From assembly GCA_017425245.1 (NCBI GenBank), contig JAFOOX010000053.1, positions 84,349 to 148,348 of the forward strand: a DNA stretch of 64,000 nucleotides. Reading direction: 5' to 3'. A program made the position numbers and the translations under genes. The DNA is from Gammaproteobacteria bacterium (lineage in GTDB: Bacteria > Pseudomonadota > Gammaproteobacteria > Enterobacterales > Neiellaceae). The notes under the pieces are model-generated. The model saw only the letters and a list, made by a program, of their open reading frames with translations, ran no database searches and was not told the DNA's origin. This document shows positions 40,403-40,469 of this stretch, piece after piece. How positions within the stretch are numbered: position 1 is the stretch's first letter; each line of letters opens with the position of its first letter.

Positions 40403-40469
40403 TCGCTTCACCTATCTTGTTCGCATCTCGCATCTCGCATCTCGCATCTCGCATCTCGCATCTCGCATC
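40403..40469 (+). repeat. Leader element cgcttcacctatcttgt followed by 7 perfect tandem TCGCATC heptamers (40421-40469), ending 24 bp upstream of the MBL-gene ATG
   Basis: Seven consecutive tcgcatc units read directly from the sequence. It is related to 38541-38567 and to the reverse complement of 7221-7261. Confidence 0.9.

Follow-up and report, generated by a model that had tools for sequence, protein, structure and literature searches.

A dispersed, length-variable heptanucleotide repeat family in intergenic spacers of an uncultured gammaproteobacterium

Here we describe tandem arrays of a seven-nucleotide unit, CTCGCAT, in a 64,000-nucleotide (nt) stretch of an uncultured gammaproteobacterium of the Neiellaceae (assembly GCA_017425245.1, contig JAFOOX010000053.1, positions 84,349 to 148,348), referred to below as the window. 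Two of these arrays precede genes, one encoding a metallo-beta-lactamase (MBL)-fold ribonuclease-like protein and the other a hipA-like kinase, and others occupy spacers of quite different kinds. We conclude that the arrays probably constitute a lineage-specific, dispersed family of heptanucleotide simple sequence repeats (SSRs), or variable-number tandem repeats (VNTRs), of the "long SSR" type, driven by slippage. The first-pass annotation of this DNA had regarded the arrays as candidate phase-variable or regulatory repeats that differ in copy number through slipped-strand mispairing. Copy number does vary between loci and between strains as slippage produces, but a role as a switch was not supported.

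The clearest array is (TCGCATC)x7 on the plus strand at 40421..40469 in the 5' leader of the MBL gene, equivalent to (ATCTCGC)n and (CTCGCAT)n. In Tandem Repeats Finder it has a period of 7, 7.0 copies and 100% matches, so that the seven perfect units claimed earlier, and their location in a non-coding 5' leader, were both borne out. The distance from the end of the array to the ATG at 40493 is 23 nt and not 24 as had been stated. This 23-nt stretch, AACCACAGGACGTGGAGGCATAC (40470..40492, plus strand), forms the right-hand limit of the variable zone and contains the Shine-Dalgarno sequence GGAGG at 40483-40487. It is identical in L003-5, near-identical in L006 and partly retained in L270, three of the related sequences compared below; its conservation thus reaches relatives at 77% protein identity. 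A small hairpin, CAC-AGGAC-GTG, lies within it and abuts the Shine-Dalgarno sequence. The gene 3' of the array (40493..41842, plus strand) encodes a beta-CASP MBL-fold ribonuclease-like (RNase-J-like) protein of 449 amino acids with the Pfam domains Lactamase_B, Beta-Casp and RMMBL, the nearest cultured relatives of which have at most 58% identity. An N-terminal extension of this open reading frame (ORF) through the array, from TTG at 40382, was ruled out because homologues share the methionine at 40493 behind the conserved 23 nt with their Shine-Dalgarno sequence.

To place this array in its surroundings we covered approximately 79 kb of a 294-kb scaffold, comprising the window together with approximately 6 kb of left flank and 9 kb of right flank, taken from the metagenome-assembled scaffold of the window (ENA ERZ28657650) or from a second assembly. 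All true period-7 arrays in this sequence carry a CTCGCAT-family unit, and no other heptamer is found in tandem. The family comprises four arrays and one extended solo copy, all of them intergenic. There are 8 two-unit matches where chance would give 0.04. Isolated ATCTCGC outside the arrays, at approximately 5 and 7 occurrences on the two strands against an estimated 4 per strand, is not clearly enriched. Head-to-tail copies thus extend beyond chance length, up to 7.0 perfect copies, as in an SSR or VNTR, and a single unit is tandem at several intergenic loci while other heptamers are not repeated, as in a dispersed heptanucleotide family.

The remaining members of the family lie in other contexts. 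An inverted array claimed to follow lpdA is present between the convergent genes lpdA (plus strand) and ORF136 (minus strand). Tandem Repeats Finder gives 5.7 copies with 87% matches at 7221-7260, and the imperfect array as a whole (7221..7276) reads on the minus strand CTTGCTG CTTCTTG CTCGCAT CTCGCAT CTCGCAC CTCGTAT CTCGCAT CTCGC. It is positioned between the ORF136 stop codon and a GC-rich hairpin ending lpdA, AAGGGCGCC-TGAT-GGCGCCCTT (7187..7208, not assigned to a strand), which adjoins the array in the terminator region common to the two genes, has 9 pairs in a scan for terminator-like structures, and is kept in L272-L274. About 0.7 kb past the window end, on the minus strand, (AGATGCG)3.9(GCAAGCA)6.1 at L244:12843-12910 consists of two perfect blocks between a 290-amino-acid ORF and the acetolactate synthase large-subunit gene ilvI, and is antisense to both. 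The solo copy GCATCTCGCCTGGGC (46573..46587, plus strand) has 1.3 units together with the right flank of the hipA copy and lies between convergent genes, directly after the stop codon of a TrmK-like gene. The core motif GCATCTCGCCTGRGC that had been placed within a palindrome near 46563-46580 is indeed there: this 15-mer occurs at 38558 and at 46573, against 0 matches in 100 shuffles, and the arms GAGATG/CATCTC at 46564-46579 make a 6-bp palindrome around the TrmK-like stop codon.

Unit number is polymorphic, between conserved flanks, at all three loci for which related sequences could be compared (3/3 comparable loci), as the first-pass annotation had anticipated. At the MBL locus there are 7.0 units in the window, L001 and L002, which are identical throughout; the two 7-unit assemblies are suspected to derive from the same sample and were not counted as independent. 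The same locus has 2.0-2.7 units in L003-L005 (88.4% nucleotide identity over 5.3 kb) and 14.3 units in L270 (96.3% nucleotide identity over 2.1 kb), while in L271 and L275 the contig end falls within the array. L006, at 77% protein identity, is without the array and retains the Shine-Dalgarno block. At the hipA locus, 1.6 units in the window correspond to 3.3 in L270 (96.3% nucleotide identity) and at least 4.3 in L271. The lpdA/ORF136 locus, finally, has 5.6-5.7 units in the window, 1.6 in L272 (ORF136 with 89% amino acid identity), 6.6 in L273 (84%), where the variant TCGTATC is amplified fourfold, and approximately 1 in L274 (80%), namely TCGCATCTCAC. These alleles are indirect evidence of the hypermutable tract expected at a phase-variable locus. 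Variability alone is not indicative of a regulatory switch because the lpdA/ORF136 array, where no promoter is expected, varies equally. Array variation is a reflection of the mutability of the tract and is not evidence for selection maintaining a switch.

The copy upstream of hipA is shorter than had been claimed. Its array, TCGCATCTCGC at 38556-38566, has 1.6 perfect units, and the earlier count of approximately two is reached only if TTCTCGC is included. It follows the sequence TTGCCC-N17-TATCTT, and this leader and array (38525..38566, plus strand) form a second copy of what precedes the MBL gene. A shared leader element had been proposed for the two sites, and the similarity is real: in a hand alignment from TTGCCC to the first units, the hipA and MBL leaders have approximately 84% identity over approximately 43 nt, the 13-mer CTTCACCTATCTT has exact occurrences only at 38541 and 40406, and blastn aligns the MBL leader of L270 to the hipA leader of the window with 87% identity over 31 nt. 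The MBL copy, however, is a degenerate heptamer array rather than a promoter cassette in its own right. Divided into heptamers, the plus strand at 40381..40420 has the units CTTGCAA CTTGCCC CTTGTCA CTCGCTT CACCTAT CTTGTTC. In the 46 nt that lead up to the perfect MBL array the lag-7 autocorrelation is 0.51 versus approximately 0.25 at other lags (p=0.003), and the region of L270 matching this leader shows the same periodicity (p=0.0004). No periodicity was detected by the lag-7 test in the hipA-side leader alone (p=0.62).

At the ilvI locus a perfect (CTTGCTG)6 block continues in phase into CTCGCAT units, and the MBL leader units are similar to this block as well as to the CTTGCTG CTTCTTG that precedes the lpdA-side array. 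Given its periodicity and this resemblance, the MBL leader is therefore best interpreted as an older section of a composite heptamer array that has since decayed, and the hipA-side leader appears to be a diverged paralogue of it. At three loci the CTTGCNN units lie 5' of the CTCGCAT units, a common polarity that suggests copying of a composite sequence from site to site rather than a separate origin at each. The MBL leader does contain a weak sigma-70-like pair, TTGCCC at 40389-40394 and TATCTT at 40413-40418. The TTGCCC hexamer sits within one degenerate heptamer unit, and the pair, with a spacing of N17/18, matches 8/12 consensus positions, which is under the threshold of the promoter scan, and was not called.

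The leader and array copies bracket a module of variable occurrence. In the window, the hipA-like kinase gene (38637-39983, plus strand; Pfam HipA_C) is followed by a helix-turn-helix (HTH) gene with a HipB-like product (39980-40318, plus strand; Pfam HTH_3), and the whole module (38637..40318) lies between the two copies. The 88%-identical strain L003-5 is without it, having instead a cupin gene and one copy of a repetitive extragenic palindromic (REP)-like element directly before the array and the MBL gene (L003:830-960). The array forms the border between conserved and variable sequence in this region. In sample SRR34772130 (L275:1490-1531 compared with window 40406-40430), the MBL-side leader ends in TATCTTTCTCGC, which is the hipA-side spelling, and not in TATCTTGTTCGC. 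This spelling may result from gene conversion between the two copies or from a contig that switched copies. Directly after the hipA-side array is the palindrome TGAGCAAAATCTTGCTCA (38568..38585, plus strand), which has a 7-bp stem in the scan for terminator-like structures and is kept in L270. The MBL gene is flanked by toxin-antitoxin modules, with hipA-HTH upstream and a HepT-like/nucleotidyltransferase pair directly 3' of it (window 41848-42624 region; L001:4356-4999), the latter followed by a gene for a cadherin-like/Big_9 protein of approximately 1,010-1,035 amino acids.

Tuning from a promoter or 5' untranslated region (UTR), or a phase switch, had been envisaged for these arrays. The MBL array is indeed in a 5' leader and is variable, but a switching geometry is absent and the terminator-side array is equally variable. 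None of the arrays lies within a reading frame and none between -35 and -10 hexamers; the MBL array is 5' of the Shine-Dalgarno sequence and 3' of the only hexamer pair. With respect to transcription, the 5' regions of genes hold two arrays in sense orientation, a third runs antisense in the gap between co-directional genes, and the remaining two separate convergent genes. The strands are mixed as well, plus for the copies at 38.5, 40.4 and 46.6 kb and minus for those at 7.2 and 64.7 kb, although GC skew is positive in 15/16 bins of 4 kb, with no sustained reversal. The MBL leader RNA, 43% C and 14% G on the sense strand, has a minimum free energy of -12.3 kcal/mol compared with a shuffle mean of -18.6 (z=+2.25), folds worse than 200/200 shuffles and is unpaired in its predicted centroid. 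In the hmw system of Haemophilus influenzae, where natural alleles have at least 11 heptamer repeats, base pairing between the repeats and a G-rich arm further downstream produces a long hairpin that is cut by RNase III (PMC12721329). The predicted fold of the MBL leader has no complementary arm, no G-rich partner and no long hairpin of this kind. A search of the window against Rfam gave no match, and a small RNA made from the repeats (promoter-array-terminator) was rejected on this result and on an inconsistent architecture.

The following sequence of events would account for the family. Proto-arrays of approximately 1.6 units (TCGCATCTCGC) in intergenic spacers would act as seeds, which could lengthen and shorten in 7-nt steps through slipped-strand mispairing at replication. 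Variant units such as TCGTATC and CTTGCTG may arise by point mutation and then be amplified, and older parts of an array would decay into a barely periodic "leader". Arrays would be tolerated where spacer length is free, that is, in 5' leaders, in gaps between genes of the same direction and in convergent terminator regions. Transcription most likely runs through the MBL array, whether it starts at the weak TTGCCC/TATCTT pair or arrives by read-through, and the alleles of the array would then alter the leader by approximately 14-100 nt of unstructured C-rich RNA 5' of the conserved Shine-Dalgarno block. Any effect on MBL expression would be a graded by-product of mutation and not the output of a dedicated ON/OFF switch; such an effect, through leader length or Rho loading, is plausible. 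That slippage is the cause, that the array is transcribed and that no function is under selection are three points that we infer.

Several observations weigh against this reading. Identical 11-nt seeds occur at five loci in 79 kb, where an estimated 0.04 would be expected, and this cannot be attributed to independent origin by chance. Slippage is therefore insufficient by itself, and a copy-and-paste process or selection on the motif is needed. Two arrays are sense-oriented in gene 5' regions behind a similar leader, and the 14.3-unit MBL allele comes from a contig with 1.3x coverage. The lpdA-side seed is retained to 80% protein identity, which could reflect constraint. The best-studied heptamer SSR in a 5' position, that of H. 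influenzae hmw, is functional (PMC12721329). It is conceivable, if quite unlikely, that selection keeps the 11-nt seeds at orthologous intergenic sites as genome-wide tunable elements, for example as C-rich Rho-loading or protein-binding tracts, whose length changes by slippage would give nearby genes graded, reversible and heritable control. If so, this free-living uncultured gammaproteobacterium would have a contingency system that includes a toxin kinase and an RNase-J-like nuclease and that has spread via an unknown copy-and-paste mechanism.

Among the alternatives to a slippage-driven SSR family, we regard an expression-tuning, contingency-like SSR as unlikely. Here the unit number in the 5' UTR of MBL or hipA would set the amount of mRNA or its translation, by altering the length of the leader or by offering Rho a C-rich, G-poor, unstructured tract on which to load, and selection would maintain the array on that account. 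In its favor, the MBL array has a weak promoter-like pair on one side and the conserved Shine-Dalgarno block on the other, its perfect purity implies recent turnover, and close relatives have alleles of 2-14 units. Rho loading sites are C-rich, G-poor and unstructured RNA, and the MBL leader, given its composition and its predicted lack of structure, is like them. Precedents exist in a pyrimidine-rich heptamer SSR in a 5' UTR (PMC12721329) and, in the account given in PMC4679880, in uspA1 and uspA2. Yet the array between the convergent genes lpdA and ORF136 is as variable on the terminator side of its genes, the ilvI-side array is antisense to both its neighbors, and the MBL leader lacks the G-rich partner for the hairpin that hmw regulation needs. 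The strain with 2-2.7 units (L003-5) is without any promoter-like pair upstream, and the genes concerned encode a ribonuclease-like enzyme and a toxin kinase rather than surface or restriction functions.

A further possibility is that the arrays are the remnant or end of a small mobile element, or a "mobile promoter", such that leader and array travel together and have carried or captured hipA-HTH. We consider this very unlikely, even though the strain-variable module is bracketed by two copies that are approximately 84% identical, the CTTGCNN units 5' of CTCGCAT at three loci suggest the copying of a composite sequence, and identical 11-nt seeds at many loci require a dispersal mechanism. There are no terminal inverted repeats around any copy, the repeat search having paired inverted only array with array, and by inspection no target duplications flank the arrays, in contrast to miniature inverted-repeat transposable elements or other small mobile elements. 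The leader and array pattern had 0 matches in JGI metagenomes, and HipA homologues in Halomonas and other genera are merely 57-66% identical. Simple excision between the two copies, moreover, fails to explain L003-5, because the array is present there without the leader. An alternative offered at the outset was that the motif is the binding site of a regulator, but a fixed site of this kind agrees poorly with unit numbers of 1.6-14 at a single locus and with the occurrence of both orientations. Iterated operators through which, for example, the adjacent HipB-like HTH protein would coordinate hipA and MBL are accordingly highly improbable in our view. The motif is upstream of two adjacent transcription units beside an HTH gene, and the core GCATCTCGCCTGRGC recurs, but the strain lacking hipA-HTH keeps the array before its MBL gene, and arrays are found also after lpdA and before ilvI in the opposite orientation. 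Neither site number nor arrangement is conserved, with 1.6-14.3 units, copies in 3' regions and copies on the opposite strand. The conventional palindrome TGAGCAAAATCTTGCTCA that adjoins the hipA array is of the more usual HTH operator type and is a stronger candidate than the heptamers for a putative operator of the HTH protein. Finally, that the arrays are an artefact of short-read metagenome assembly is barely credible. Logan contigs do often end within arrays, and one allele rests on a contig of 1.3x coverage; however, the 49-nt MBL array is shorter than one read and identical in two assemblies, and arrays of the same unit are present at the same sites in assemblies of at least six other samples.

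We also examined the unit outside this lineage by scanning one genome per species for arrays of at least three ATCTCGC units. More than 118 stretches from genomes of many phyla have such arrays, with 2-5 loci in several genomes, and orthologous Vibrio loci have 9.3 versus 14.3 units. ATCTCGC had 0 matches in viral contigs, compared with 13 and 8 for two composition-matched control heptamers, and on this control we rejected the idea that it is a special heptamer across bacteria; its wide distribution is probably the general background of heptamer SSRs. Many of the upstream flanks in other genomes resemble promoters to the eye; when scored, promoter-like flanks (at least 8/12 positions) are weakly enriched upstream of arrays, at 9/78 compared with 5/74 controls and 3% of random positions. 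According to crude ORF calls, under which 38 arrays were labelled "coding", probably spuriously, array contexts in other genomes are convergent in 16 cases versus divergent in 4, and the upstream gene is co-oriented with the C-rich strand of the array in 45 versus 18. The arrays of the window itself break the rule of context and orientation that these numbers suggest. In a Thermoanaerobaculales metagenome-assembled genome (MAG), Prado005, three ATCTCGC arrays (L042, L076, L124) share an upstream flank of approximately 35 nt with TTGACA, a parallel in an unrelated phylum to the shared leader of hipA and MBL. In Gemmatimonadota MAGs (L098, L117), ATCTCGC arrays on one side of a central GC hairpin and their complement on the other form long inverted repeats.

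The window contains further repeats. The REP-like element is 114 nt long with three G5/C5 hairpins (CTGATCCCCCACTTTGTAAAAGGGGGGCGAGGGGGGATTTT...) and is found at 7738-7968 (two tandem copies), 38230-38350 and 38393-38505, and in part at 63456-63497. It had no match in Rfam. Its 20-nt core, CCCCACTTTGTAAAAGGGGG, occurs at 119 loci in JGI metagenomes (679 kb; GC roughly 40-60%), none of which is close to the window (best identity approximately 70%) and 0/119 of which have two or more heptamer units. A link between this element, which adjoins two window arrays, and the heptamer family was rejected on this result. To the left of the REP-like element in the second assembly, L002:1-690 is AT-rich and unrelated to the window, which is suggestive of either a chimeric assembly or another junction at this repeat. 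A low-GC block at approximately 12000-36000 (46-50% compared with 60-63% elsewhere) has Poly_export, Wzz, glycosyltransferase and aminotransferase genes. This block was probably acquired horizontally as a surface-polysaccharide island; it stops just short of the region of REP-like copies, hipA and arrays, and within it is a perfect pentanucleotide array, (TTGGC)x4.8, at 31636-31659. A short dispersed repeat (GCTTTTGGCGACATCCTGTCGCCTCGACC..., families D11 and D12) is present at 61571-61599, 63343-63404 and 63716-63777, with the three copies around a phytase-like gene.

The CTCGCAT arrays provide a clean, multi-allele example of a sequence-specific heptanucleotide family outside cyanobacteria and Beggiatoaceae, and orthologous loci display seed, expansion, amplification of a variant unit and decay. 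They also illustrate that phase variation should not be concluded from differences in copy number alone. In practical terms, such arrays break short-read assemblies and are potential markers for strain typing.

Among known systems, the short tandemly repeated repetitive (STRR) heptanucleotide families of cyanobacteria, which Mazel et al. are said to have described in 1990, reportedly comprise dispersed tandem repeats in non-coding DNA with lineage-specific units and no established function. The CTCGCAT family resembles them in these respects and differs in that its host is a gammaproteobacterium. Heptanucleotides are the most abundant class of long SSRs (LSSRs, units of 5-11 nt) in most genomes examined, and slippage was proposed for them (Mrazek, Guo and Shah 2007, as cited in PMC4679880). 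The arrays described here are like LSSRs, as characterized there, in being tandem, pure, non-coding, beyond chance length and polymorphic between strains, and differ from them in that one unit family makes up every heptamer array in 79 kb. The TAACTGA direct repeats of marine Beggiatoaceae, some Cyanobacteria and Bacteroidetes (MacGregor 2015, PMC4679880) are similar in that a specific heptamer is repeated 2-6 or more times at many intergenic sites, often just 5' of start codons, while related heptamers are not repeated, and no function has been assigned (PMC4679880). By contrast, the unit here is CTCGCAT, a normal GGAGG follows the MBL array, and other copies lie in 3' or convergent spacers or are antisense.

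Two systems with an effect on expression share the position of the MBL array. Expression of hmw1A and hmw2A in H. influenzae falls with rising number of (ATCTTTC)n repeats in the 5' UTR (PMC12721329); that repeat is likewise a pyrimidine-rich heptamer starting with ATCT, located between promoter and start and variable in copy number between strains, whereas the MBL leader is without a complementary arm, predicted to be unstructured and limited to 2-14 units, and its unit is found also at sites that are not 5' of genes. The (AGAT)n of uspA2 and the poly-G of uspA1 in Moraxella catarrhalis also lie between promoter and start in strain-dependent number and have a demonstrated effect on expression, but, going by the description in PMC4679880, they differ in unit length, and their genes encode surface proteins in a pathogen adapted to its host. 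The seeding of many unlinked spacers by a single heptamer is a puzzle common to STRRs, TAACTGA repeats and the CTCGCAT family, and the present lineage could help to explain it, given a complete genome or reads. Taken together, these comparisons place the CTCGCAT arrays as a new addition to a known sort of element, the heptanucleotide SSR family, and not as a demonstrated genetic switch.

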